Shown in pieces: positions 7,152 through 42,782 of a stretch of DNA of 64,000 nucleotides. This stretch comes from Armatimonadota bacterium (lineage in GTDB: Bacteria > Armatimonadota > Armatimonadia > Armatimonadales > Armatimonadaceae): contig JAYUUO010000305.1 in NCBI GenBank assembly GCA_043754515.1, positions 1 through 64,000 on the forward strand. The letters are read 5' to 3'. The notes under the pieces were generated by a model, which saw only the letters and a program-made list of their open reading frames with translations, was not told where the DNA came from and ran no database searches. Numbering within the stretch: the stretch's first letter is position 1; each line of letters starts with the position of its first letter. The position numbers and the translations under genes were made by a program.

Positions 7152-8522
7152 TCACACGCTCGAAAGCATCGGCATGATCGGCTTTGGGGCCGCCTCAATC
7201 GCGGCAAGTTCCGGTGCCGCCACGGGGGCAACTGGTACCTTAGTTGCCGCCGGGTCGTACTCGTCTATGCGCAGGAAGACCTGACGAATCACATCCTCGG
7301 GACTGGTTAACCCCATGCGCATCTTCAGTAATGCGTCTTCGCGCATCGGCACCATGCCCGCCGCCTGTGCCGCGCGGCGTAGGTCAGACGACGGGGCACG
7401 GTCCATAATCAGGCGTGAGAACTGTTCGTCCACCGCGACGACCTCATGCACACCAATACGCCCGCGGTAGCCGGTCCCCTCGCACGCCTGACAGCCCACC
7501 TGATGCCAGATCTTCTCGTCGGGCGCGATGCTCAAAAGCGCGGATTGCTGCGGCGTCGGCGCGCCCTGGCGGCGGCACTGCGGGCAAAGGCGGCGCACTA
7601 GCCGCTGGGCGACCATGCCGATCAGGCCGGACGAGATCAGGAACGGCGGCACGCCCATATCCGTCAAACGCGTGACCGCGGTCGGCGCGTCGTTCGAGTG
7701 GAGCGTTGATAGCACCATGTGCCCGGTCATCGCCGCGCGGAACGCGATCTCCGCCGTCTCCGCGTCGCGTGTCTCCCCCACCAGAATCACGTCCGGGTCC
7801 TGGCGCAGGATCGAGCGCAATTGCCGGGCGAACGTGAGACCGATCTTCTCGAACACCTGGCTCTGATTCACGCCGTCCATGTCGTACTCAATAGGGTCTT
7901 CGCAAGTGACGATGTTATTCGCCTTGCTCCGTAGCACGTTCAGCGCGGAGTAGAGCGTGGTCGTCTTACCGGAGCCGGTCGGCCCCGTGACGAGTAGCAG
8001 ACCCAGCGGCTGATGGATCAGGTTCTCGAAGGCGGCTTTGTTGTGTGGGGAGAAGTCAAGGCCGTCCAGCGGGCGGAACGACATGCTCCGGTCTAGAAGC
8101 CGCATAACGACCTTCTCGCCGTACATGATCGGGAGCGTGGAGATACGTAGGTCAACGGAACGCCCGGAGAAGGAGATGGAAATACGACCGTCTTGCGGCA
8201 ACCGCTTCTCGTTGATATCAAGTTCCGCCATGACCTTGATACGAGCCGCACAAACATCCTGTAAGTCTTTGGGCAGATCGCGCCAGTTGTGTAACACGCC
8301 GTCAATGCGGAAGCGAACCTCGACTTTGTCTTTGCGCGGCTCGTAGTGGATGTCCGAGGCCCCGACACGAACCGCCTCGTTGATCATGGCGTTGACCATC
8401 TGCACGGCGGGACCTTGCGCCGTTCCGCCGCTGGTGTTCACGGTCGGGTCAGAGCCGCTGGGCGCGCCGGGGAACATCGGTGTCTGGGGCGGTGTGTTGA
8501 ATCGTGAGTTTCCGAAAGCCAT
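7152..8522 (-). CDS. GspE/PilB family assembly ATPase lacking the N-terminal T2SSE_N domain
   Basis: ASDIHYEP, PQDGRI, GPTGSGKTTT, EDPIEY, LRQDPDVILVGETRD, TGHMVLSTLH and CPQC...CQAC zinc motif. Confidence 0.92.
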   Translation of the reverse strand: MAFGNSRFNTPPQTPMFPGAPSGSDPTVNTSGGTAQGPAVQMVNAMINEAVRVGASDIHYEPRKDKVEVRFRIDGVLHNWRDLPKDLQDVCAARIKVMAELDINEKRLPQDGRISISFSGRSVDLRISTLPIMYGEKVVMRLLDRSMSFRPLDGLDFSPHNKAAFENLIHQPLGLLLVTGPTGSGKTTTLYSALNVLRSKANNIVTCEDPIEYDMDGVNQSQVFEKIGLTFARQLRSILRQDPDVILVGETRDAETAEIAFRAAMTGHMVLSTLHSNDAPTAVTRLTDMGVPPFLISSGLIGMVAQRLVRRLCPQCRRQGAPTPQQSALLSIAPDEKIWHQVGCQACEGTGYRGRIGVHEVVAVDEQFSRLIMDRAPSSDLRRAAQAAGMVPMREDALLKMRMGLTSPEDVIRQVFLRIDEYDPAATKVPVAPVAAPELAAIEAAPKPIMPMLSSV

Positions 8523-8639
8523 GCGGGTTTGCTCCAATGCGGTTGGGGAGATTTGAACTCATTTTACCAGAACGCGATCAGGGATGGCAATGTCCGCGCG
8601 GTATGACACCAACATTTCGCGTGGTACAATCCGCGCATT

Positions 8640-27101: not shown

Positions 27102-28513
27102 AACATTCATTACTAGTCCCCCTGTTGCTCGGAATGCTCATCACGACGGCACCGGGGGCGCACGCCAAACGTCCTCCACGTGCCAACGCGGCGAAAATAG
27201 CGGTTGCGAAGTTTGGCGACCCGACAAAGCTCCCTGCCGACAAAGCGCAACTGCTGGTTGACACGTCCCGCATCCCGGCATTCTACGACCCGGCGAACCT
27301 GGAGCGGGAGCCGGTTGTGTCCGCGCGGGGCGCGGTGCTGATGGATGTCGCCACGGGACAGATCGTCTGGTCTAAAAACCCGGATCTCCAACTATACCCC
27401 GCCTCGACAACCAAGATCATGACCGGCTTGTTGTTCGCCGAGCGCACTCAGCCGGAGGACGTCGTCACCTGTACCGACGTCAAGATACGTGCCATTGAGG
27501 AGAGTTCGCTCCATATCCAGCCGTGGGAGAAGTTCACCAGTAGCGATCTGCTTTACGGGACACTGTTGCGGAGCGCGAACGACGGATCTGTTCTAATCGC
27601 GGAACACGTTGCGGGATCTGTCGCGAAGTTCGCCGACCTGATGAACGAGCGCGCGGCGCAGGCGGGGGCGACTCATTCCCACTTTCATAATCCAAACGGC
27701 CTCCCTGACCCCCTGCACTACACGACTGCGCGCGACCTCGCCTTGATCACCCGCGCGGCCCTCGCGAACGAGCGGTTCCGCGACGCGGTGAAGATTCGTA
27801 AGCGGGTCATAGCCCGCTCCAAGAGTAGGGATGTTGTCGTCGCCAGCAAGGCGAGAGATTTTTATGAAAAGTTTCCCGGCGCGGACGGCGTAAAGACGGG
27901 ATTCACGCACGCCGCGCGTCACTGCTTCGTGGGTTCGGCGACGCGCAACGGGCGACAGTTGATAGGCGTCGTTCTTGGCGCGGCGAATAACGCTACTGGC
28001 GAGGTAGCGAGTGTTATGGGATGGGGTTTTCGACGGTACCCGACCGTGGTCGCGCTCAGGAAGGGGGCGCTCGCGCCGCCTCTTTCGGTGAACGGGGGGG
28101 CGAAAGACACCTTGCTAGCCGTCGCCGGGGCGGATCTGATCACCTTCAGTGACGTCGGGAAGGCCACGCCCGTAGTGCAAACGGTAGCCAAGCCGCTTCC
28201 CGCGCTGTCAGCCCCGATCACGAGGGGACAGGTTGTCGGGCGGCTCGTCGCGCGGGTTGACGGCGCGGATCGGGGGAGCGTGCCTCTCCTCGCAGCGGAA
28301 GATGTGCCGGTCGCGTCGGCGGTCGCTATCACCGCGAGAGCAGGAACCGTGCAGGGGAAAGCCTTCCGGATCGCGCTGTGGGCGGTGGGCGCGGGTGCCG
28401 TCTTTCTGATAGGATTAGCCTGTTATGGAACAACGACTACAAAAAGTGCTCGCCGCCGCCGGAATCGCTTCTCGCCGCAAAGCCGAGGAATTGATTACGG
28501 GGGGCCGCGTTAA
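27098..28513 (+). CDS. D-alanyl-D-alanine carboxypeptidase (peptidase S11)
   Basis: Signal peptide, PASTTK (SxxK), SAN (SxN) and KTG motifs, C-terminal TM helix. Confidence 0.92.
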   Translation: MKHSLLVPLLLGMLITTAPGAHAKRPPRANAAKIAVAKFGDPTKLPADKAQLLVDTSRIPAFYDPANLEREPVVSARGAVLMDVATGQIVWSKNPDLQLYPASTTKIMTGLLFAERTQPEDVVTCTDVKIRAIEESSLHIQPWEKFTSSDLLYGTLLRSANDGSVLIAEHVAGSVAKFADLMNERAAQAGATHSHFHNPNGLPDPLHYTTARDLALITRAALANERFRDAVKIRKRVIARSKSRDVVVASKARDFYEKFPGADGVKTGFTHAARHCFVGSATRNGRQLIGVVLGAANNATGEVASVMGWGFRRYPTVVALRKGALAPPLSVNGGAKDTLLAVAGADLITFSDVGKATPVVQTVAKPLPALSAPITRGQVVGRLVARVDGADRGSVPLLAAEDVPVASAVAITARAGTVQGKAFRIALWAVGAGAVFLIGLACYGTTTTKSARRRRNRFSPQSRGIDYGGPR

Positions 28514-30497
28514 GGTGAACGGCGAGACGGTCATGGCTCAGGGGACGAACGTTGACCTGGATCGCGACGAGGTAACCGTTGACAACCAGAAGGTTTCCGT
28601 CGCCGTTCAGCGACACTACATCGCTCTGCACAAGCCGCTTGGCTACGTCTCCACCGTTTCCGACCCATACGCGGAGCACAAGGTCGTTGACTTAGTGAAG
28701 ATAAACGGGGCGCGCTTGGTGCCGGTCGGTCGCCTAGACGCCGACTCGGAGGGGTTACTCTTGATGTCGGACGACGGCGATTTCGTCTTCAAGGTGACAC
28801 ACCCCAGCCAGAGTATGGGCAAGACCTATATCGCGACGGTGCGCGGGAAGCCCGACCCAGACGCGATGAACCGCCTCTCCCGCGGCTTGAAACTCAGCGA
28901 CGGCTACGTGACCGCTCCCGCCGGGGCGACGCTTCTTTCCCGCGGGCACGAGCCGGGCACCTCTATTCTGGAACTGGTCCTGCACGAGGGCAAATACCGG
29001 CAGGTACGCCGCATGCTCGACACCATCGGTCACCCTGTGCTCCGACTGGTGCGCACCCGCGTCGGCCCCGTGATGCTCGGCGAGTTGCAACCGGGCGAGT
29101 GGCGTCCGCTCACCGACCATGAGTTGACTCTGATCGCGGATGGTAAGAACGCCCCCGAAGCCGAGCCGGAAGCGGATGCGCGGCGCGGCCAGCGCGGACA
29201 TTACGACGGCGACCGGCGTGACCCCCAGCGCGAGCGCACGTTCACGCAAGTGACACGCCGCCCCGTTTCGCGCGGCGAAGGGGCGTTCGCACCGCGTCCC
29301 GGTGTCCGGGACGGCGGCAACGGTCAACGGCCCACGGGGCGACCCGCCCCGCGCCCGATGGGCGGACCCGCTCCGGGCGGACGACCCGCCTTCGGGAATC
29401 GTCCCGCGCCCGGCGGGGATCGCCCGTCATCTGGCGGCCGCCCGCCGCAAGGCGACCGCCCTTCTTTCGGAAACCGCCCGCCTCAGGATGGTGACCGTCC
29501 TTCCTTCGGGAGCCGACCGGCGCAGGGCGGAGATCGTCCCTCGCCGGGCGGCGAGCGTCCACGCTTCGGGCAGGACCGCCCGCAATCTGGCAATGACCGG
29601 CCCCGCTTCGGCGGCGACCGCCCGCGACCGGATGGCCCACGACCCGGATTCGGCGGGAGCCGCCCCGCCCCCGGTGGTGGCGACCGCCCCCAGTTCGGGA
29701 ACGATCGCGACCGACCAGGCGGTGACCGCCCTGGATTCGGTGGCGACCGACGTTCGCAAGGGCCGCCGCGTGACGGCGGTGCCCCGCGCTTTTCCAGCCC
29801 GCCGCGTGACGGCAACGAGCGACGATTTTCGGGTCCGCCGCTGGGCGGCGGTAGTCGGCCCAGCGGCGACACGCCGCGCAGGCCAGCGGGCCAGAGTGAC
29901 AGCGGCGGGCGACCACAATCCGGTGGAGATCGCCCGCGTTTCAACAGCGGCGGTGACCGGTCTCCTTACCGCCCAAGCGGGGTTCGTCCCCAGTTCGGTG
30001 GCAACCAACCGGCACAGGGTAACGACCGCCCCCGGTTCGGCGGGGATCGTCCAGCACCAGGCGGCGAGCGCCCGCGTTTCAATAGCGGCGGCGATCGGCC
30101 CCGATTCGGCGGCGGAGATCGACCCCAACAGGGCGGCGAGGCACCACGGCAGGGCGGCCGTCCCCCACAGGGATTTACCGGTAGCGGCCCGCGCCCCAAC
30201 AACACCTTCCGGGGAGGCGGCGACATGCCGAACCGACAGTTTAGCGGTGGCGGGAGCCGTCCCCCGTATCGCCCCATACCAAAACCGAGGGATGTGAGAC
30301 AAGGCAATGAAACTGGTAATAGCGGTTATTCACGACCGGGATCGGGGTCGGATCACGGAAGGCCTGCTCCGGGGCGGGTTCAAACTGACCAAAATCGGTT
30401 CAACCGGGGGGTTTCTCCGGGAGGGCAACGTGACGCTCCTGATCGGCGTGGAGGAGAAGGACGTGGACCGCGTCCTGCACCTGATCGGCGAAGCTAG
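28425..30497 (+). CDS. rluB: RluB-like rRNA pseudouridine synthase with long low-complexity C-terminal tail
   Basis: S4 domain RLQKVLAAAGIASRRKAE, GRLDADSEGLLL and EGKYRQVRRM motifs, then about 450 aa of G/R/P/D-rich sequence. Confidence 0.9.
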   Translation: MEQRLQKVLAAAGIASRRKAEELITGGRVKVNGETVMAQGTNVDLDRDEVTVDNQKVSVAVQRHYIALHKPLGYVSTVSDPYAEHKVVDLVKINGARLVPVGRLDADSEGLLLMSDDGDFVFKVTHPSQSMGKTYIATVRGKPDPDAMNRLSRGLKLSDGYVTAPAGATLLSRGHEPGTSILELVLHEGKYRQVRRMLDTIGHPVLRLVRTRVGPVMLGELQPGEWRPLTDHELTLIADGKNAPEAEPEADARRGQRGHYDGDRRDPQRERTFTQVTRRPVSRGEGAFAPRPGVRDGGNGQRPTGRPAPRPMGGPAPGGRPAFGNRPAPGGDRPSSGGRPPQGDRPSFGNRPPQDGDRPSFGSRPAQGGDRPSPGGERPRFGQDRPQSGNDRPRFGGDRPRPDGPRPGFGGSRPAPGGGDRPQFGNDRDRPGGDRPGFGGDRRSQGPPRDGGAPRFSSPPRDGNERRFSGPPLGGGSRPSGDTPRRPAGQSDSGGRPQSGGDRPRFNSGGDRSPYRPSGVRPQFGGNQPAQGNDRPRFGGDRPAPGGERPRFNSGGDRPRFGGGDRPQQGGEAPRQGGRPPQGFTGSGPRPNNTFRGGGDMPNRQFSGGGSRPPYRPIPKPRDVRQGNETGNSGYSRPGSGSDHGRPAPGRVQTDQNRFNRGVSPGGQRDAPDRRGGEGRGPRPAPDRRS
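29330..30270 (+). repeat. degenerate coding repeat (GGDRP / RP.FG units)
   Basis: Recurrent GGDRP, GDRPSFG and RPRFGG peptides encoded by variants of GGCGGCGACCGCCC. Confidence 0.75.
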
Positions 30498-33413: not shown

Positions 33414-34514
33414 ATGCCTTCTATCAAGGATGTAGCGGCGGAAGCCAAAGTCTCACCCGGCACAGTATCTAAAGTGCTGAATATGCGCTCCGACGCGAAT
33501 ATTTCCTTCGCGACTAGCGAGCGCGTCCGCTCGGTCGCGCGTCGCATCGGGTATCACCCGTCCGCGCTGGCTCGTGGCCTCGCCGGGAAGCCGATGAATA
33601 CCATCGGGGTCGTCATGGCATACAGCCAGGAGTCGGTGACATCGGACCCCTACCTCGGACCTTGCCTGGATGGAATCCTTGCGCGAAGCAAGGAAAGACA
33701 GCAGAAAGTTACACTGTTTCTCGAGGGCGATTGGGATGCCGCACTTCGTAGCGTGCCCATCTACGGTGAAGGGCACTGTGACGGCCTTCTGGTGATTATC
33801 CCCCGTCTAGGAAGTCCTTTCCTCGAATGTCTCCAAATGCGGCGCCCCCGCCTCCCTTTCGTTCTAGTCGGTGACAGCCGCGAGGAGGGTGGAATGCCTT
33901 GCGCTGATTTAGACAACCATGCGGCGGCCCGGATGGTTACTTCCCATCTCATAGCTTTTGGACATCGGCGGATCGCGGCCTTTTGTGGGAATGATGACTT
34001 CTGCTCGAATACGCAACGTCTAGAGGGATACAAGGCGGCGTTGACTGACGCGAATCTCGCTATAGATTCGGATCTGGTGTTCGAGGGCCAGTATCACAAC
34101 GAGTGGGGCGCGAGAAACATGGCGCGGCTACTCGATACGTTCCCGAGCGCGACACGACCAACCGCGGCCGTCGGCTTCTGTGACTCGGTAGCAATAGGTG
34201 CTTTGGATGAGATGGAGCGACGTGGTATCACCGCGTCGGATGTTGCAGTCGCGGGTATTGACGATATTCCCGACGCGGCCCGTCGCGGACTGACCACCAT
34301 CCGTCATTCCATCCGTCGAGTTGGTGAAAACGCCGTGGAGACGCTCCTGGGGATCATCCATCCGGAGCGGGGAACACCTGATCGTGTGTTGCTTGCGCCG
34401 GAGTTAATCGCGCGGCAATCTACCGCCGTGGCTCGTCGTCCCGACGTCGCGCCCATCAAAGGAGAACACGTGACCTATCTTAGAAGGAGCAGTGCCATCG
34501 GAAACAAACAGTAA
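33414..34514 (+). CDS. LacI family transcriptional regulator
   Basis: SIKDVAAEAKVSPGTVSKVLN HTH, YHPSALARGL hinge, GHRRIA and VAGIDDI motifs. Confidence 0.95.
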   Translation: MPSIKDVAAEAKVSPGTVSKVLNMRSDANISFATSERVRSVARRIGYHPSALARGLAGKPMNTIGVVMAYSQESVTSDPYLGPCLDGILARSKERQQKVTLFLEGDWDAALRSVPIYGEGHCDGLLVIIPRLGSPFLECLQMRRPRLPFVLVGDSREEGGMPCADLDNHAAARMVTSHLIAFGHRRIAAFCGNDDFCSNTQRLEGYKAALTDANLAIDSDLVFEGQYHNEWGARNMARLLDTFPSATRPTAAVGFCDSVAIGALDEMERRGITASDVAVAGIDDIPDAARRGLTTIRHSIRRVGENAVETLLGIIHPERGTPDRVLLAPELIARQSTAVARRPDVAPIKGEHVTYLRRSSAIGNKQ

Positions 34515-34713
34515 ACATTGTCACACCCTGCTGCCCGACCCCTGTAATCCCGTGGAAAGACATCCGGGCTGACGACGCTGACGGGCCAATATCCGTGGTC
34601 ATGATCAGCACAAAGAGGAAATCGAGACGGTGCCCTACAAATCATGGGGTGCCAAAAAGCGGCTATCATTCATTGCCGAAACGATAGGGTCGTCCCTAGA
34701 AAGAACCAAGTTT

Positions 34714-35604
34714 ATGAAACAGTCTTCCGTACAACAAAATCGTCTTAGTGGATTCACACTGATCGAGTTGCTTGTTGTCATCGCTATCATCGCGATTCTC
34801 GCCGCCATCCTGTTCCCCGTTTTCGCCCAGGCGCGTGCCAAAGCGCGTCAGATCACCTGCATCTCGAACGAGAAGCAGTTGGGTCTCGGGATGATGCAGT
34901 ATGTCCAGGACTACGACGAGACCGCGCCGCTGTTCCGGATCGTCAATAGTTCGTGGTGGACCGCCAAAATGCAGAACTGGAAAGACCTGATCTACCCGTA
35001 CATCAAGAACGGCGGACGCGACTACAACGGCGGCGTCGCTAACACCCAGGAGGGGAGCGGCGGTGTGTTTTCCTGTCCGGAGAACTCCGCGACCTGGTCA
35101 GGTGCCCCGGTGTGGTGGGATCCTTATAATGGCTCGGGTGGGATTGGCGACGAGACTACCCGGTTCCCTCGCGGCTACGCCGTTAACACCGATGCCGGTG
35201 TGAATGAAAAGGGATCAAACGGGAAGTTCTGGCCCTGCTCTGGTGACGGCAGTTGTGAGAGCAACACTGGCGCGTTCGCCGACCTGCAAACCCCGACAAA
35301 CACGATCATGATAGCCGAGTCGCGTCTCCCTTTCCCCGACACGAGTTCCCAGTTCGCGACTTACCAGTGTACGGCATTAGGCGTACCCGCGGGTGGACAG
35401 ACGACCGGTTGCATTCAGGGGCACCGGGGCGGCTTTACAAACTTCGTGTTCTTTGACGGACACGCAAAATCGGTGCGCCTGACGAACTCCATTTCGCAGG
35501 ACATGTGGGGCGTCTACAACGGGCCGAAGGGCTACGGCGCGGCGCAACAGGCGTCTGACCTCTCTGCGGTGAATCAGACGAAGGAGTGGAACCCCGGCTT
35601 TTAA
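34714..35604 (+). CDS. DUF1559 prepilin-type N-terminal cleavage/methylation protein with H-X9-DG-like motif
   Basis: [42 protein letters not shown]...QDYDE and C-terminal [11 protein letters not shown]. Confidence 0.93.
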
Positions 35605-35624
35605 TAGGACACTGGTTGGAAGAT

Positions 35625-35653
35625 ACCCGCCCGCGCCAGCCGCGCGGGCGGGT
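35625..35653. terminator. GC-rich hairpin after the DUF1559 gene
   Basis: ACCCGCCCGCGC-CAGCC-GCGCGGGCGGGT with no U-tract, so it may stabilise the mRNA rather than terminate it. Confidence 0.45.
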
Positions 35654-35714
35654 GAGTACATCGCCGTCTGCCAGATGAGACGACGAACTTAATCGCATCT
35701 GGATAGTCAACACC

Positions 35715-36011
35715 ATGAAAATAAGAATCACAAGAGTGGTAGGCGATAAAGAAGGTAGCACCGCTACTGTATGCGGGGCACTAGCGGTCGCTACGCTCTG
35801 CATCCTCTCGGCCGGCTGCTCGCCGTCCCCGGACGCGCAGGGTGGAGGATCACAGGCCGGGGGGACGAAGGCGGGTACCGTCGTCGCGCCGATGGCAAAG
35901 CCCGGCGCGAAAATCGGCGAGAACAACCCGCCGCCGGGGCAACCCAATCACATGTCGCCGGAGATGGAGGCGCAGATGAAGAGCTACCAGGAGAAGGCCG
36001 GAAAAAAGTAA
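35715..36011 (+). CDS. small putative lipoprotein
   Basis: Hydrophobic stretch ending in lipobox LSAGC, then a G/P-rich mature part. Confidence 0.65.
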   Translation: MKIRITRVVGDKEGSTATVCGALAVATLCILSAGCSPSPDAQGGGSQAGGTKAGTVVAPMAKPGAKIGENNPPPGQPNHMSPEMEAQMKSYQEKAGKK

Positions 36012-36121
36012 CCGTATGGTGCTCCGTGGTTTCATTATTCCACTCTCTTCACACTAATAATTAGTCCGGCGGTGAAGAAACTGCCCTGTTTACGCGTTAT
36101 TAAGGTGAAAGAAATAACGCC

Positions 36122-36691
36122 GTGAATGAACCGACGGGGCAATGCTCCGACACCGACGACGAAATCATGAGTCGCGTCATCGCAAGTAGCGACGCGGCGG
36201 CGTTCACGTGTCTGGTGCGCCGACACCAGGCACGCGTCATCGGGTTCGCGGCGCGGATGTTCGGCGGTGACCTGGATACCGGTGCGGACATCGCCTAGGA
36301 CACGTTCGTGCGGCTGTGGGAGACGCGGGGGCGGTATGTCCCGAATGGCAAACTACGCCTGTACCTGTTGCGGATCGCGCATAACCTGTGCGTGTCACGG
36401 CTTCGCTCCCCTGAGTCGAAGGTTGGCGCGCTGGATACGCGGGAGCCGGATCAACGAATTACTTCCTCCTCCGACATAGCAGTCGCGGTTCGCTCGGCTC
36501 TCAGCCGACTTCCGGACGATCAGCGGGTCGTGTTTCTGCTTCACGAGTACTCCGGGCTTTCGTATGCCGAAATAGCCGACACCCTCGCTATCGCCCCCGG
36601 CACCGTCGCGTCACGCAAGCATTCCGCCGTACAAGCCCTGAGTAAACTGCTCGCGCCATTGTACGGACGGAAAGAGGGAGGCCGCAAATGA
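36122..36691 (+). pseudogene. ECF sigma factor interrupted by an in-frame TAG
   Basis: Region 2 DAAAFTCLVRRHQARV...ADIA*DTFVRLW (TAG at 36296-36298) and LRLYLLRIAHNLC. Region 4 LSRLPDDQRVVFLL...GLSYAEIADTLAIAPGTVASR. Confidence 0.88.
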
Positions 36692-38250
36692 CACAAATGC
36701 CTACTAAAGAAATCGAAGCGGAAGCCGTACCGGTGGCCGAGGAGCCGCAGGAGTTGTTCGACAGCACCGTCTCACGTCTAGCGGAGTCGTGGGCGGTCGC
36801 TGCTGACACTGTAGACATTTCGGCGCGTGTCGAGGCCGCCATAACATCGAAAACATCACCGCAACCGCGCTCCGCTAAGACAATCGTCGAACTTGTAGAA
36901 CGGGAAGCCGAACTCCGCACGAGCCAGGAGTGGCGCGCCTCGCGCTCGAAAAAAGCGAATGCAGGTGTTCCAACAGTCGCTCTGCCGGAACGAAAGGCTA
37001 ACACGGCGAAGACATTGTTCAACCACATCGTTGGAATGAGCGCCACAAAGGTAGACGTATCTATCACCCATCCCACGGCCGACGCGCTCGCGATGCTATC
37101 CGCGGAGGTAGCCTTCGCCCACTTCGCCCTGCCGATGAACAAGAACGGGCGAAAGCTCTACGTAGCGTTCGCCGACCCTGTCGACACCGCCTTGGTAGAC
37201 GCGATCAGCTACGCGACAGATTGTGACGTCCAACCGCTCAAGGCGGATCGCGGTGAACTCGCGGTCGCTATCGCTTACGCCAAACCCCAGCCTAATGTTG
37301 ATGCGGAGGAACAAGCGATGAGCTATGAAAGCGGAAGTTCTAACCAGAGCGGTGGGGATGAATTCGCCGCTTACTTTTCTACCCGGCATTCCGCCACTCC
37401 TCTGCCATTGCTTACCGTTGAACAGGAGCAACGTCTTGTTCGAGATATAAAGCGCGGACATATTTGGGCTAGGAAAGTGCTCTTTCGGGCGCACCTTTAT
37501 CTTGTCAACTCCGTCACGAAAAAGTACGCATCGCGCGGTTTATCAGTTGAGCATTCGGCACAAGTTGCAACTTCCGCCCTGGACGAGTCGGTCGAAACAT
37601 TCGACCGACGCGAATCTCGATTCTCAACATATGCCATGTCTCGCATCATACAGGCGTTAAATCGCGCTGTCGAGGCGGCTGAGCGAGAAGGAGCTAACGG
37701 TGTCGGTACCATTGTATCCAGAGATATGGACAACGCCTTCCCTTTCGTGGATCTCGATAAGAACACCCCCGAGCGGGACGCAATAGAAACACTGACGTCG
37801 GAGGAGGCCCATGCGTACCACGCCTTGCCGGTGAAGAAGGAAGCGCGAAAACTCTGGGTTGCTATGCGCGATCCGAAGGATGTCGGGGCAACAGATGCCA
37901 TCCGAATGGCGACGGGATGTCTCGTACAAGCGATGTACGCAAAGCCTGAACTTCTCGACGCGGCTATCTTAGCGACGTACGGGCGCGGTCTAATGCCACC
38001 GCCGCCCACCCCGCCAACCGCCGTCGGGGCACCCGCTCCGGAGCCGGGGCCGAATGACAACGGTGAGTCGGCACATCTATTGCGCGACATAATCGGCGAA
38101 CTTCGCGGGTTACACAGCGAGATCGCCGCGCTCCGTGCCGAGGTCGCGCAGATGCGCCGGGAACGCGCGGCGAACGTCCCGCATCCCTCGATCGAACGTC
38201 GTCTGTTCCCGTCCACGCCCGCCGAAAACGCCGCGCGGCGTGACGCCTAA
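36688..38250 (+). CDS. multidomain protein: T2SSE_N, degenerate sigma70 r1.2/r2, T2SSE_N, Pro linker, coiled coil
   Basis: Two PilB N-domain-like blocks (ALP...KLYVAFADP...DAI; FVDL...ALPV...KLWVAMRDP...DAI) flank PLLTVEQEQRL...HLYLVNSVTKKYASRGL...FD...RFSTYA..IIQAL.RA. Confidence 0.8.
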   Translation: MTQMPTKEIEAEAVPVAEEPQELFDSTVSRLAESWAVAADTVDISARVEAAITSKTSPQPRSAKTIVELVEREAELRTSQEWRASRSKKANAGVPTVALPERKANTAKTLFNHIVGMSATKVDVSITHPTADALAMLSAEVAFAHFALPMNKNGRKLYVAFADPVDTALVDAISYATDCDVQPLKADRGELAVAIAYAKPQPNVDAEEQAMSYESGSSNQSGGDEFAAYFSTRHSATPLPLLTVEQEQRLVRDIKRGHIWARKVLFRAHLYLVNSVTKKYASRGLSVEHSAQVATSALDESVETFDRRESRFSTYAMSRIIQALNRAVEAAEREGANGVGTIVSRDMDNAFPFVDLDKNTPERDAIETLTSEEAHAYHALPVKKEARKLWVAMRDPKDVGATDAIRMATGCLVQAMYAKPELLDAAILATYGRGLMPPPPTPPTAVGAPAPEPGPNDNGESAHLLRDIIGELRGLHSEIAALRAEVAQMRRERAANVPHPSIERRLFPSTPAENAARRDA

Positions 38251-38267
38251 CACATCAGGAGAATATT

Positions 38268-39320
38268 ATGAACGTACCGGAAGAATTGATCGCGCTCTTC
38301 GACGCAGCCCTCGCCGCGCAAGCCTCGGACATACACCTGGTCGCCGGGGAGATGCCGCGGTTGCGCGTACGCGGCGAGCTGGACCCGGTGACGAACGCGT
38401 TCCGGTTAGAACCTGTCCAACTGGAAGAGATGTTACTATCGCTATTCGCGCCACACACTCGGTCTAAGTTTCACACCGGGGTACGCACCTGCGCCGAGGT
38501 GTTGCTCGAGCACCGCGAGTTCAACTTCACCCTATTCGCCTACCGGAGCACGGGCGGACTTGCGGCCACTGTACGTATCATAAACGCTAAAATACCTACT
38601 CTCGCCGAGATCGGCGGCGATTGCGTCACGCCCTTCGCGAAATTAACCGGGTTACCCCGTGGGTTGGTGCTGATAACAGGGCCTCACGGATCCGGGAAGC
38701 AAACTACTTCTTTCGCGGTGGTACAGAAAATCAGTTCGCGGTCCTCGCGGCGCGTGCATCTGCTGGAGGAGTCGCTGGCATACCGGCTCAAGAGCGAGAA
38801 AAGTTTGATTTCACAGATAATCATCGGGCAGGACGCGCCGGATTACGCGCCCGCGATGCAGTCGCTCTATCGCGGGGCGGACCCGGACGTCGTGTATGTC
38901 GCCGATCTACCGTCGAGTGACGCCGCACAAGCAGCGCTCATGCTCGTAAGGTCCGGTCATCTGGTGATAGCGAACGCGAACGCCGCGTCAGCGGCTGACG
39001 CGCTCGCCATCCTCTGCGCCGCGCTCCCCGACGACTCGCTCGCTCTGCTCGCGGAGCACCTGGTTGCGGTCACCAACCAGCGACTGATGCCGAAGGCGGA
39101 TGGGAGCGGAAGAATCCCCGCTTACGAAATCCTGCGTGCCAGCTCAGAAATAAAGTCGGCTATACTCGATCGCTCCGATCAGGCAACATTCGCCCGTATT
39201 ATGGAGTCGGGGGTTGACGGAATGCGAACGATACCGCAAGTGGCCGCCCAACATATTCCGGAGGGCGCGGTGTCTAAGGACGCAGCCACGGCGCTTCTAC
39301 GCGATTATTCTACGACTTGA
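38268..39320 (+). CDS. PilT/PilU-like ATPase with degenerate catalytic motifs
   Basis: ASDIHLVAG..PRLRVRGEL, IPTLAEIG, GLVLITGPHGSGKQTT, DPDVVYV, SGHLVIA, GRIPAYEIL and GMRT motifs. Confidence 0.85.
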   Translation: MNVPEELIALFDAALAAQASDIHLVAGEMPRLRVRGELDPVTNAFRLEPVQLEEMLLSLFAPHTRSKFHTGVRTCAEVLLEHREFNFTLFAYRSTGGLAATVRIINAKIPTLAEIGGDCVTPFAKLTGLPRGLVLITGPHGSGKQTTSFAVVQKISSRSSRRVHLLEESLAYRLKSEKSLISQIIIGQDAPDYAPAMQSLYRGADPDVVYVADLPSSDAAQAALMLVRSGHLVIANANAASAADALAILCAALPDDSLALLAEHLVAVTNQRLMPKADGSGRIPAYEILRASSEIKSAILDRSDQATFARIMESGVDGMRTIPQVAAQHIPEGAVSKDAATALLRDYSTT

Positions 39321-39990: not shown

Positions 39991-41331
39991 TTATCGTGCT
40001 TCTAACTGCTTTCGCAGGATTTCGAGGGCAGTTTGCATCTGCGGGTCGAGCCGGTCCGGTGCGAGCCGATCACGCGGATTGGAACGCCGTGCTTCGCGCA
40101 TATGCTCCCAATCGGAGTCGGTTAACTCCATCGTCACATCCGGGATTATACCGCCGCTGATGCGGGCTCCGGTTAGCGGATCATATTTCTTGTTGATGTC
40201 GGTTTTGTTCGGCGTGAAGTAATGTTGCGTAGTCACCTTCACGGCGGAGTCATCGTCGAGCGGAAAGATGGTCTGCACCAGTCCCTTCCCGAACGTCCGT
40301 GTACCGACTAGCGTGCCTACCTCGTGATCTTTAATCGCGCCCGCGACGATCTCCGCCGCCGACGCGGAGTTGCCGTTCACGAGCACCACGACCGGATACT
40401 TACCCGAGGACAGGCCGCCCTGGTGCTTGCCCCGCTCCACCGAGAGCGGCGACATCTTGCCGCTTTTCTCCTGTATCCAGACCACGGTTCCCTCGGCGAC
40501 GAAGCGCGACGCGAGGTCCTGCGCCACCGTCAGCAGCCCGCCGGGATTGTCACGTAGGTCGAAGATCAACCCCCGCATCTTTCTACCTTCGAGTTTTGCC
40601 AGCGCGGACGCGAACTGAGTGTCGGCCGTCTCGCCGAACATTGAGAGGGAGATGTATCCGATGTGTGAGGGCTCGTCCTCCATGCGCGACTCGACCAGGG
40701 GGGTCGCGACCAGAGCGCGAGTGAGAAGCACCTGCATCGGCGCGGGGTGGTTCGCGCGCGCGATAGTGATTCGGACGGTGCTACCGGGATCACCTTTGAT
40801 GCGCTCGATAGTGGCGTCCAGCGTTTTGCCGCTGACCGCGACGCCATCCACCTGAGTCACGATGTCGCCGGGAAGTATGCCCATCTTTGCCGCCGGGGAG
40901 TCTGTGATGGTGTCCATGACGACCACCTTCTTGTCACCCGAAATGTCGAGGGTGGCACCGATACCGGCGAAGACGCCGCTGGTCTCCTCCATGTTGCTGG
41001 CATATTCTTTAGGCGTCCAGAACTCGGTGTACCTATCATGGAGCGTCGCCAGCATGCCGTCTATGGCGGCGTAGGTGAGGGCAACGGCATCCGGCGTTTT
41101 GGCCCCCTCTTTCTGCGGCGCATATTCCGAGCGGATGATGTTCAGCACCGCGAGGTAAGTCTCGGTGGGCTTCAGCGTTTGGATAGGGGGCACCCCCCAG
41201 CCCGCGCGTGCCCCCCCGAGACTACTACCTAAATTATCCGAGACGGTGTCGGCCTGCGTCCCACAGGCGAAACCGGCCACCGCGAGAGCGACTAGAAACA
41301 CGACTCGTCGCGTGAGGTTCGGGTTCCTCAT
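39991..41331 (-). CDS. ctpA: carboxyl-terminal processing protease, S41A (CtpA type)
   Basis: PDZ domain FAGIGA, DLRDNPGGLL, SASAAE (catalytic Ser) and TFGKGLVQ (catalytic Lys). Confidence 0.92.
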   Translation of the reverse strand: MRNPNLTRRVVFLVALAVAGFACGTQADTVSDNLGSSLGGARAGWGVPPIQTLKPTETYLAVLNIIRSEYAPQKEGAKTPDAVALTYAAIDGMLATLHDRYTEFWTPKEYASNMEETSGVFAGIGATLDISGDKKVVVMDTITDSPAAKMGILPGDIVTQVDGVAVSGKTLDATIERIKGDPGSTVRITIARANHPAPMQVLLTRALVATPLVESRMEDEPSHIGYISLSMFGETADTQFASALAKLEGRKMRGLIFDLRDNPGGLLTVAQDLASRFVAEGTVVWIQEKSGKMSPLSVERGKHQGGLSSGKYPVVVLVNGNSASAAEIVAGAIKDHEVGTLVGTRTFGKGLVQTIFPLDDDSAVKVTTQHYFTPNKTDINKKYDPLTGARISGGIIPDVTMELTDSDWEHMREARRSNPRDRLAPDRLDPQMQTALEILRKQLEAR

Positions 41332-42782
41332 CGTTTCTCCCCTTGCCCATGTCGGCGGGTTGCCACCACGACACCCCCCACGCGTCCGGCAACCGCTGTC
41401 GCCCGCTCAACCGTTTGAGCGTCGGTGAGTCCTGGAGGCAGGAGCGAGCGCGGCGTCAACCCGACCCGCTCCCACCCCGTCCCCTTCGGGCTGATTAACC
41501 TACCCGTCGTGAGAACAAACGCCGACCCGTCCGCGAGCGGGTACCGCGTCTGCGACCGGCCGTCGCCCCACGTCCGTCGCGCGCCGACGATGGTGGCACC
41601 GCTGTCCGCCAGATACGCCGCGAGTGCCTCTGCAAGTCCCGCCGTTCCCCGGTCGGTGAGTACCGAAACCCGAAGCGGTTTGGGCGACACTTGCCGGAGC
41701 GCGATGGGCAGAGGCGACAACCTACCCCTGGCCCCGATTTCTATCACGAACGGGCCACTCGGGCGGGCGAGGTCAGACGCGATGTTTTCCGCGATGTCGA
41801 GTAGCCCGATCCCGGCGTTCTGCCGAAGATCGAGGACTAGGCTCTCGCCCACCCCGGCGGAACGGATCGCGTTCCCAACAGCGGCTCGCGAGTCGGGCGT
41901 GAAGGCACCGACCCGGACGTAGAGGGATGGCCTACCCGCCGCCATCTGATGCCGTATCAGGGCTTGGGGGGCCACGGTAATCGCGTCCGTGACCGCGACG
42001 GAGAGCGGCTTGGCGACGCCCTCACGCCGGACGGTGAGAATATGCTTCTCCGACAACCCCTCGCGTAACTGCGCGCGAGCGACGAGGAGACCTATCCCGT
42101 CACGGATGGGGATGTTCCTGCCCGTGCCGGACGTATCGTCGGTAGGAACCGGTGCCGGCGTCGCTAACTTATCTACCGCCAAATATGGGTTATCCGCCAG
42201 GATGTAGTGGCCGTCAATGTGGGTGATCCTGTCGCCGGTACGTAGCCCCGCTTTTGCCGCCGGGGATCCCGGTATTGGGGCGACTACGAGGAGTCGCATT
42301 TCCGTGTAGCCGCTCCCCGTCTTCTCGGAGCGGACCGCCGTGACGGCACCGATCCCGGCGAAACTGCCCCGGCTCTCCCCGTCGGCGAGGCGACACTCGG
42401 CGGGACTCTGGTAGGAAGATTGCTCGTCCTCGAGCGCGGCCAACATGGATTGGACCGCGCCTCGGCTCATAGCCGCGTCAGTCGGAAGGGAGTCAACGTA
42501 TTCGCTACGGACGAGGTCGTGGACCTGCGCGAAAGTTCCGGCCGCGGCGCGCAACCGCTTATCCAATAAGGCAACTCTTGACTTATTTAGTTTTGCTCGG
42601 AGCCGCGTTACGGACGGTTGTCCCGTCTGGGCAACCCGGTCCTCTGGCGAAACGACCGGGCGCGGCACCGGGATGCTCCGATGCCAGTGATCGCCACCCA
42701 GAAAACATAGGCCGAAAGCGGCGACAGCCATTAACGCGAACCACGGGGAGGGTTTAGGGGACGATGTTGGGGACCTTGTCAT
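41328..42782 (-). CDS. S41 peptidase homologue, predicted catalytically inactive
   Basis: PDZ FAGIGA and LVLDLRQN are present, but TAGLAE replaces SASASE and TWGDG replaces TFGKG. Confidence 0.82.
   Translation of the reverse strand: MTRSPTSSPKPSPWFALMAVAAFGLCFLGGDHWHRSIPVPRPVVSPEDRVAQTGQPSVTRLRAKLNKSRVALLDKRLRAAAGTFAQVHDLVRSEYVDSLPTDAAMSRGAVQSMLAALEDEQSSYQSPAECRLADGESRGSFAGIGAVTAVRSEKTGSGYTEMRLLVVAPIPGSPAAKAGLRTGDRITHIDGHYILADNPYLAVDKLATPAPVPTDDTSGTGRNIPIRDGIGLLVARAQLREGLSEKHILTVRREGVAKPLSVAVTDAITVAPQALIRHQMAAGRPSLYVRVGAFTPDSRAAVGNAIRSAGVGESLVLDLRQNAGIGLLDIAENIASDLARPSGPFVIEIGARGRLSPLPIALRQVSPKPLRVSVLTDRGTAGLAEALAAYLADSGATIVGARRTWGDGRSQTRYPLADGSAFVLTTGRLISPKGTGWERVGLTPRSLLPPGLTDAQTVERATAVAGRVGGVVVATRRHGQGEKR

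Follow-up and report, generated by a model that had tools for sequence, protein, structure and literature searches.

A three-gene cassette with an ECF sigma factor and a PilT-like protein

We analyzed a window of 64,000 nucleotides, meaning the whole of positions 1 to 64,000 of contig JAYUUO010000305.1 (Armatimonadota bacterium, assembly GCA_043754515.1), and in it a cassette of three co-oriented genes: a gene for an extracytoplasmic function (ECF) sigma factor, an open reading frame (ORF) of 520 amino acids and an ORF of 350 amino acids that encodes a PilT-like protein (Table 1). The sigma gene and the 520-aa ORF share an ATGA overlap, and the 17-nt gap ahead of the PilT-like gene holds an AGGAG, all as described in an earlier note made from the letters of this DNA alone. 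That note had read the 520-aa protein, which stands in the usual anti-sigma position, as a hybrid of pilus-ATPase N-terminal (MshEN) domains and sigma-70 region 2, and the third protein as a non-catalytic PilT. Three further features emerged here: a remnant of an anti-sigma helix 4, a C-terminal coiled coil with its tail, and a putative promoter ahead of the sigma gene.

Table 1. Features of the cassette, with positions in the window
Feature	Position	Strand	Remarks
Putative autoregulatory ECF promoter	36073..36098	+	-35 TGAAGA(AA), 16-nt spacer, -10 CGTT
ECF (group 4) sigma-70 factor, pseudogene here	36122..36691	+	GTG start; 189 codons; region 4.2 family motif GTVASRK
In-frame amber TAG	36296..36298	+	Codon 59, region 2
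Soluble anti-sigma-family protein with captured inserts, 520 aa	36688..38250	+
Putative class I anti-sigma domain remnant (end of helix 3 and helix 4)	36745..36852	+	hhalign to family profile: probability 40%, E 3e-4
First and more diverged MshEN C-terminal subdomain (copy 1)	37045..37278	+	46% identical to copy 2, 32% to own PilB
Sigma-70 region 1.2-2.4, captured from the host lineage's group-2-like sigma	37354..37698	+	46-47% identical to own-genome sigma on contig C150
MshEN C-terminal subdomain, copy 2	37723..37980	+	No c-di-GMP motif; 43% identical to N-domain of own PilB on C254
Coiled coil that defines the family, and Pro/hydrophobic tail	38065..38247	+	hhalign probability 94.5% to compact family; helix 460-496
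Shine-Dalgarno-like AGGAG	38257..38261	+	Inside 17-nt gap ahead of 350-aa PilT-like ORF
Cassette-specific PilT-family protein, 350 aa	38268..39320	+	Walker A K144, Asp-box E167 and R103 kept; D213 replaces catalytic Glu, N238 second His, T88 first Arg finger

The sigma gene has the architecture of an ECF factor, with regions 2 and 4, no region 3 and fewer than about 200 residues. With the stop read as X, Pfam Sigma70_r2 (residues 31-96) and r4_2 (122-173) scored above cut-off, as did TIGR02937, and the protein falls inside the clade of cassette sigmas. The aligned sigmas of five relatives are open at the amber column, and the gene is therefore a pseudogene in this strain, inactivated by this single stop; since the other two genes are intact, the stop looks recent. 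The decay suspected in the earlier note is thus a local lesion, and with its sigma dead the switch would be off in this strain. Read-through of the amber codon was ruled out, TAG being an ordinary stop in this genome, where it ends 826 of about 2,060 long ORFs. The source-like run X1 carries the TAG without a variant, and no intact, near-identical allele was found: the next match stood at 64%, and the amber codon lies outside the coverage of runs X5, X7 and X8.

Conservation of the cassette in Armatimonadota

The three-gene unit is real and conserved in Armatimonadota, and all three of its genes are under purifying selection. A profile built from five intact sigmas (E <= 1e-45) was run against 401 Armatimonadota genomes; loci were selected by the sigma alone, and with eight candidates scored per genome the resulting count is a lower bound. 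ECF, anti-sigma and PilT-like genes stood together at 29 loci in 28 genomes and 5 families (8/23, 9/29, 5/32, 3/47 and 2/20 genomes, plus the genome studied here), so that the neighbourhood singled out in the earlier note is a recurrent one. An anti-sigma was called at 28 of these loci and recognised by translation at the last, and a PilT-like gene lies behind it at 27 of the 29 within the fetched flank. The remaining two are the present locus, owing to flank length, and that of G002, which is cut short by a contig end, its tail and PilT-like gene being found on another contig. MshEN was called at only five of the 29. The cassette is also carried by G001, a genome outside this draw, and G002 has two distinct copies (L166/L034 and L190), one with an eroded and one with a more intact type of PilT. 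Seventeen metagenome loci comprised seven full cassettes, three that ended too soon, five with a different anti-sigma and no PilT in view, one anti-sigma/PilB fusion and one weak match.

At 36 extended cassette loci (318 ORFs) a convergent gene ends the operon in most cases; there is no conserved fourth gene, any further gene family recurring at four of the loci at most. No PilC or PilM homologue was found among the 318 ORFs, and two of these are prepilin-like, compared to a background of 31/4605. Distances among the sigmas and among the PilT-like proteins were correlated (rho 0.61 over 36 pairs, with 0/2000 permutations as high), kin among them not being independent. The ratio of nonsynonymous to synonymous substitution rates (dN/dS; Nei-Gojobori method, rough near saturation) was well below 1 for each gene: 0.14-0.28 in 13 of 14 pairs for the PilT-like gene, 0.16-0.54 in 9 of 10 for the anti-sigma gene and 0.07-0.33 in 4 of 6 for the sigma gene, the remaining pairs being saturated. 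Purifying selection, raised in the earlier note as a matter to check, thus acts on the whole unit; for the sigma insert of the middle protein both comparisons were saturated.

A second arrangement occurs in the same phylum. With a fused-type sigma as query, an anti-sigma domain fused to a PilB-type ATPase was found next to an ECF gene at 23 of 25 Armatimonadota loci. The fused-type sigmas fall into a clade (98) separate from that of the cassette sigmas (89; 39 rows, 3 of them on short contigs and labelled by assumption), and the two types coexist in G004 and G009.

The middle protein is probably a soluble anti-sigma with captured inserts

The 520-aa protein appears to be a soluble class I anti-sigma in which the MshEN and sigma region 2 pieces are lineage-specific inserts, derived from the host's PilB and a conserved group-2-like sigma. 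Pfam called two MshEN (T2SSE_N) stretches and one Sigma70_r2 (265-332), which bears out the domains of the hybrid, and no transmembrane (TM) helix was found (peak 19-residue hydropathy 1.26), in agreement with the cytoplasmic module of the earlier note. There was no full-length relative of the hybrid among 8000 scored candidates. Proteins from a representative search share the MshEN domain and the C-terminus with it, and 18 of 27 such relatives scanned against Pfam have a zf-HC2 match (16 above cut-off). Their alignment runs from a zinc anti-sigma domain through a W-x-V...D-x-x-x-R-V helix and a variable middle to a coiled coil and a Pro/hydrophobic tail. In most relatives, the cassettes of other families, the anti-sigma is compact (85-200 aa) and has neither insert. 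The inserts are thus optional additions and not the core of the system, and in this respect the hybrid does not capture the essence of the cassette as the earlier note had supposed.

The profile of the compact family aligns to RsiW (5wuq) over positions 4-76, through helix 4, the helix that in class I anti-sigmas contacts sigma region 2 (PMC7406223). In the 520-aa protein the corresponding remnant is modelled by AlphaFold as helices 20-34 and 45-55, and the zinc motif (Hx3Cx2C / zf-HC2) is absent. This motif is kept in 23/29 compact anti-sigmas and in 26 of 37 cassettes. The coiled coil and tail form the best-conserved block of the family alignment (A7); the zinc domain, missing from 11 of the 37 cassettes, is less well conserved than the coiled coil. 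The AlphaFold model of the entire protein (mean pLDDT 74, pTM 0.39, hence read for domains only) places in order the remnant helices, the first MshEN copy, a bundle of sigma regions 1.2-2.4, the second MshEN copy and finally a long helix. Both MshEN copies resemble this genome's own PilB most closely.

A quick tree of 32 rows places two sigma inserts with the sigma of one lineage (98) and one with that of another (97), so that two or more captures are suggested; the insert of the present protein sits unplaced on a long branch. Its conserved core- and DNA-binding residues, which in sigma-70 contact core polymerase and the -10 element, are eroded. Two other relatives have ECF-type sigma pieces in place of the group-2-like insert. 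A role of the 520-aa protein as a receptor for cyclic di-GMP (c-di-GMP) was rejected: its best motif match covers 4/11 positions, compared to 8 and 9 in two PilBs, and the motif is partial (4-7/11 positions) in 13 relatives scored.

Larger insertions or fusions also occur. In the family member P0019 (687 aa), the stretch from helix 4 to the coiled coil holds a group-2-like sigma that is almost entire, together with another region 2 and 4, which makes the protein an anti-sigma with a whole sigma factor inside. P0010 (883 aa) unites HAAS, Clp_N, three MshEN domains and the beginning of a PilB ATPase in a single chain and is thus a further anti-sigma-like fusion that includes domains of a pilus motor. 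Within the present gene, runs X5 and X7 have an in-frame 6-nt insertion at 37266, and among the differences shown (40/61; low-depth contigs) MshEN copy 1 has five non-synonymous and one synonymous, those in the PilT-like gene being mostly synonymous.

The PilT-like proteins form one clade with a relaxed catalytic site

The 350-aa protein has the two-domain PilT fold (TM-score ~0.8) and scores 178.5 bits with TIGR01420, for which the cut-off is 319.1. Besides the three replacements listed in Table 1, it has other residues in place of the AIRNLIRE motif. A quick tree of 37 cassette copies, 24 other PilT rows and 3 PilB-type rows sets all 37/37 cassette copies on one side of a branch (SH-aLRT 96). 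The genome studied here (G000) also encodes a second degenerate PilT on contig C1 (L006:4489-5493), with eroded Walker A, Walker B and His box, a shortened N-terminus and no sigma gene seen adjoining. This protein groups with the intact PilT of contig C254, outside the cassette clade, which speaks against mere long-branch attraction. A scan of genome contigs for PilT-like relatives returned mostly ordinary PilT among the matches listed, with at least three Armatimonadota records above 40% identity.

The reference PilT rows used in the residue counts had been picked by their Walker A and Asp-box patterns, and a small number of cassette rows are truncated; the Arg-finger mapping is our assumption, as are all residue labels apart from K136, E204 and R206. 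The cassette proteins seem to keep the residues for nucleotide binding and variably to lose those for hydrolysis. The second Arg finger (R97-equivalent) is kept in 37/37, the Walker A Lys in 36/37 and the first Asp-box Glu in 35/37, and relaxation is seen at the first Arg finger (kept in 19/37), the second Asp-box Glu (10/37), the catalytic Glu (23/37) and the second His (14/37), each of which is conserved in 23 or 24 of the 24 other PilT rows. All six core residues are retained by four of the 37, the other 33 being without or gapped at one or more, and the final Arg of AIRNLIRE by three (4 rows gapped). The non-catalytic PilT of the earlier note thus fits this lineage and not the family as a whole. 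Loss of zinc and loss of the catalytic Glu tend to coincide, with Asp at the latter position in 8/11 zinc-less and 2/26 zinc-bearing copies, but the lineages concerned are related to one another. The roles of the PilT motifs are treated in PMC5424180 and PMC6762196.

A shared promoter ahead of the cassette

The promoter motif was first noticed in six loci and then relaxed to YGA[AT][GT][AC]-N15-CGT[TC], with spacers of 14-16 allowed. In this form, YGAA-N18-CGTT for short, it precedes 27 of the 29 genome cassette loci, including 22 of 24 that had not been used initially, and despite the permitted variation its span is always 26 nt. It was found ahead of none of the sigmas at the 25 loci of the fused-type query. 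We infer that this promoter is recognised by the cassette sigma, which would make the operon autoregulatory.

A matrix from 31 promoter sites gave 43 matches of at least 16 bits in this genome, compared to 21 and 16 in two shuffles. The top match (C309) has no clear gene behind it, and the promoter of the present locus ranks second genome-wide when the matrix is trained without that site. The exact pattern yielded 20 matches in five genomes and 15 for a reversed control, with no common target, and a generic scan for sigma-70 promoters and terminators stayed at chance level. In one genome only, a match to the pattern lies 56 nt ahead of a pilin-like gene (L210, G019:C36).

A putative three-component switch and its alternatives

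We propose, at about an even chance of being right, that the cassette is a self-contained, autoregulated three-component ECF switch in which the PilT-like protein binds the coiled coil of the anti-sigma and gates release of the sigma factor. The sigma factor would transcribe its own operon from the GAA...CGTT promoter, and the soluble anti-sigma would hold it through helix 4 on region 2, as well as on region 4 where the zinc bundle survives. The dedicated PilT-like protein would bind the coiled coil and tail, and release of the sigma factor would then depend on the nucleotide state of the PilT-like protein or on whether another partner occupies it. It would act as an anti-anti-sigma and not as a pilus motor, with hydrolysis dispensable in many lineages, and the MshEN and sigma fragments would be optional linker inserts that may tune localisation or affinity. 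An action of the PilT-like protein on the anti-sigma is suggested by the conserved translational coupling, the dedicated ATPase clade, a coiled coil that outlasts the zinc sensor and the retention of nucleotide-binding over hydrolysis residues.

Contact between the two proteins of this locus, a pairing that the earlier note had marked for modelling, was predicted from the PilT-like protein and anti-sigma residues 456-520 (the 65-residue tail), with their own alignments and three controls. The score was 0.40, compared to 0.00 for the best control, which lends weak support to binding of the tail by the PilT-like protein; between runs, 38% or more of the contacts agreed, and the partner pLDDT was no lower than 51. 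The mark used was reached by 116/157 solved and 2/215 mismatched pairs; among those reaching it at a score of 0.60 or under were 18 of the 157 solved pairs and both mismatches.

Several observations weigh against the proposed switch. A score of 0.40 lies in a band that the tool rates as more often wrong than right unless the interaction is likely beforehand, and the zinc motif kept in 26 cassettes could sense redox by itself. No regulon beyond the operon emerged from the matrix and exact-pattern scans, which would fit the PilT-like protein as an output. Furthermore, the tree does not support a sister relation of the fused-type and cassette sigmas, so that the fusion serves as an analogy only. 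It is somewhat doubtful, though a possibility we entertain, that Armatimonadota twice recruited pilus motor ATPases as ECF regulators, the PilB type fused and the PilT type in trans, with the PilT form a nucleotide-binding pseudo-ATPase that acts as an anti-anti-sigma through the coiled coil and links pilus motor or energy state directly to transcription, and with a linker that repeatedly captures PilB N-domains and sigma fragments as tethers or decoys.

The cassette could instead report on the pilus itself: the PilT-like protein would dock on the type IV pilus platform or co-assemble with PilT, MshEN would tie the anti-sigma to the alignment complex, and the state of the motor would be relayed to the sigma factor. 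Both borrowed parts do derive from pilus motors, this genome encodes PilC and PilM homologues and an intact PilB and PilT, the pairing of ECF and pilus ATPase recurs in the phylum, and an ATPase-dead PilT of Vibrio still scaffolds PilU (PMC6762196). We nevertheless hold this account to be unlikely, given the lack of PilC and PilM and the paucity of prepilin-like ORFs at the cassette loci, the near-complete loss of the final AIRNLIRE Arg and the few loci with MshEN. PilB-type N-domains, counted with an MshEN-bearing anti-sigma profile that mainly matched PilB (6 candidates scored per genome), occur in 378/401 genomes, which renders their co-occurrence uninformative. Among the present observations, ancestry alone ties the cassette to the pilus. 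The PilT-like protein might, on the other hand, be the output of an ordinary redox- or zinc-sensing pair of ECF and zinc-binding anti-sigma (ZAS), which would induce a weak or dead PilT and so brake retraction under stress. Such a role would agree with the missing regulon, the convergent gene that usually closes the operon and the zinc motif of most compact anti-sigmas, and in Vibrio, overproduction of PilT with a mutated Walker A has a dominant-negative effect (PMC6762196). In the same paper, however, a Walker B mutant, the type of lesion seen here, was not dominant negative; moreover, the cassettes without a zinc motif retain the coiled coil and the PilT-like gene, and binding of the PilT-like protein to the anti-sigma tail is weakly predicted, all of which makes this role improbable.

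It is very unlikely that the PilT-like protein works as an active remodeller, a hexamer pulling the anti-sigma tail through its pore and stripping off the sigma factor with ATP hydrolysis. The unstructured Pro/hydrophobic tail does resemble an engagement tag and a handful of copies have the full set of core residues, but the large majority do not, and the present copy is under purifying selection although its catalytic Glu, its second His and one of its Arg fingers have been lost. A chance association, or a functionless decaying relic, is more remote still: the amber stop and the eroded inserts on long branches would suit it, whereas gene order conserved in five families, fixed promoter spacing and low dN/dS have already refuted it for the family, and it holds only for the sigma gene of this strain.

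If the proposed switch is right, the cassette may control transcription in a way that we have not found described. For ECF control by soluble anti-sigmas, three ways are listed in PMC8999054, conformational change, partner switch by sigma mimicry and a mechanosensing complex, none with a pilus-type ATPase. A PilT clade dedicated to a sigma operon would add a novel type of input. The natural series from intact to eroded ATPase would show which residues a non-motor role needs, and a genome annotated with 'extra PilT paralogues' does not necessarily encode extra motors. As the unit consists of three short genes with a known promoter and is present in single-contig genomes (G042, G043 and G250), it can be rebuilt in a laboratory host.

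Neighbouring genes

Between a glycoside-hydrolase-like gene and the sigma gene lie a LacI-like regulator, a DUF1559 prepilin-like gene and a small secreted protein (33414-36011, +). This block is missing at the same place in G001 and hence looks like an insertion or a loss. Past the convergent neighbour are two tandem genes for S41-like (tail-specific) peptidases (39991-42782, -), which G002 has too. A pseudouridine synthase-like gene with a long low-complexity Gly/Arg/Pro tail (28425-30497, -) has counterparts of similar kind in both G001 and G002. A gene 28 kb upstream (7152-8537, -), adjoining a histidyl-tRNA synthetase-like gene, encodes a third ATPase of the PilB/GspE type that has intact motifs and no N-terminal MshEN. 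Elsewhere in this genome, a CRISPR-like repeat array occupies the first kilobase of contig C143, and cas-like genes are found on contig C138.

Comparison with known systems

No paper on an ECF/anti-sigma/PilT unit was found in full-text searches of the openly accessible literature. In the ECF classification (Casas-Pastor 2021), the main text of the preprint has no mention of an ATPase or of Armatimon*, and the part of the supplement covered has none of PilT, T2SSE or twitching. The sigma/anti-sigma core is ordinary, and the PilT-family third component is what we did not find in print.

The core resembles the class I anti-sigma domain (ASD)/ZAS pairs RsrA-SigR and ChrR-RpoE in that an ECF gene overlaps a +1 anti-sigma gene with zf-HC2 and helix 4 and is preceded by an autoregulatory ECF-type promoter; the closest domains are those of RsiW (5wuq) and DdvA (8rlz). 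In contrast to these pairs, the cassette has the C-terminal coiled coil and tail instead of a TM or cupin domain, a zinc motif that is lost in some members including the present one, and a PilT-family third gene. With PilT and PilU (TIGR01420; 5fl3, 3jvv, 6ojx) the cassette proteins share the two-domain fold, the Walker A Lys and the first Asp-box Glu. They differ as a separate clade within a sigma operon that does not adjoin pilC or pilM, with the present copy below the family cut-off, and in the variable loss of the catalytic Glu, the second His, Arg residues and AIRNLIRE.

EcfG-NepR-PhyR (ECF15) likewise has a soluble anti-sigma with a dedicated third partner, and a sigma-like domain in the system (PMC8999054). 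The cassette is without its response regulator or kinase, and the sigma-like piece is optional, lies inside the anti-sigma and appears group-2-like in origin. No receiver domain of a PhyR-type sigma mimic was found by Pfam in the 520-aa protein, whose insert groups with group-2-like sigmas. The fold of the MshEN C-terminal subdomain is shared with the c-di-GMP receptors MshE and the PilB N1 domain (5htl). In these, the N-terminal RLG motif RLGxxL(L/V/I)xxG...LxxQ, present in tandem, binds c-di-GMP (PMC12943098); it is absent from the 520-aa protein and partial in the scored relatives. ECF254 of Clostridiales is also an ECF group with pilus-related neighbours (Tad/T2SSF), but it belongs to Firmicutes and has a membrane anti-sigma, no PilT named and a different gene set (PMC7826278). 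The fused ECF/PilB form comes from the same phylum and likewise has an ECF factor, a class I anti-sigma domain and a pilus-type ATPase; it differs from the cassette in having two genes, a PilB-type ATPase, a separate sigma clade and no promoter in common.

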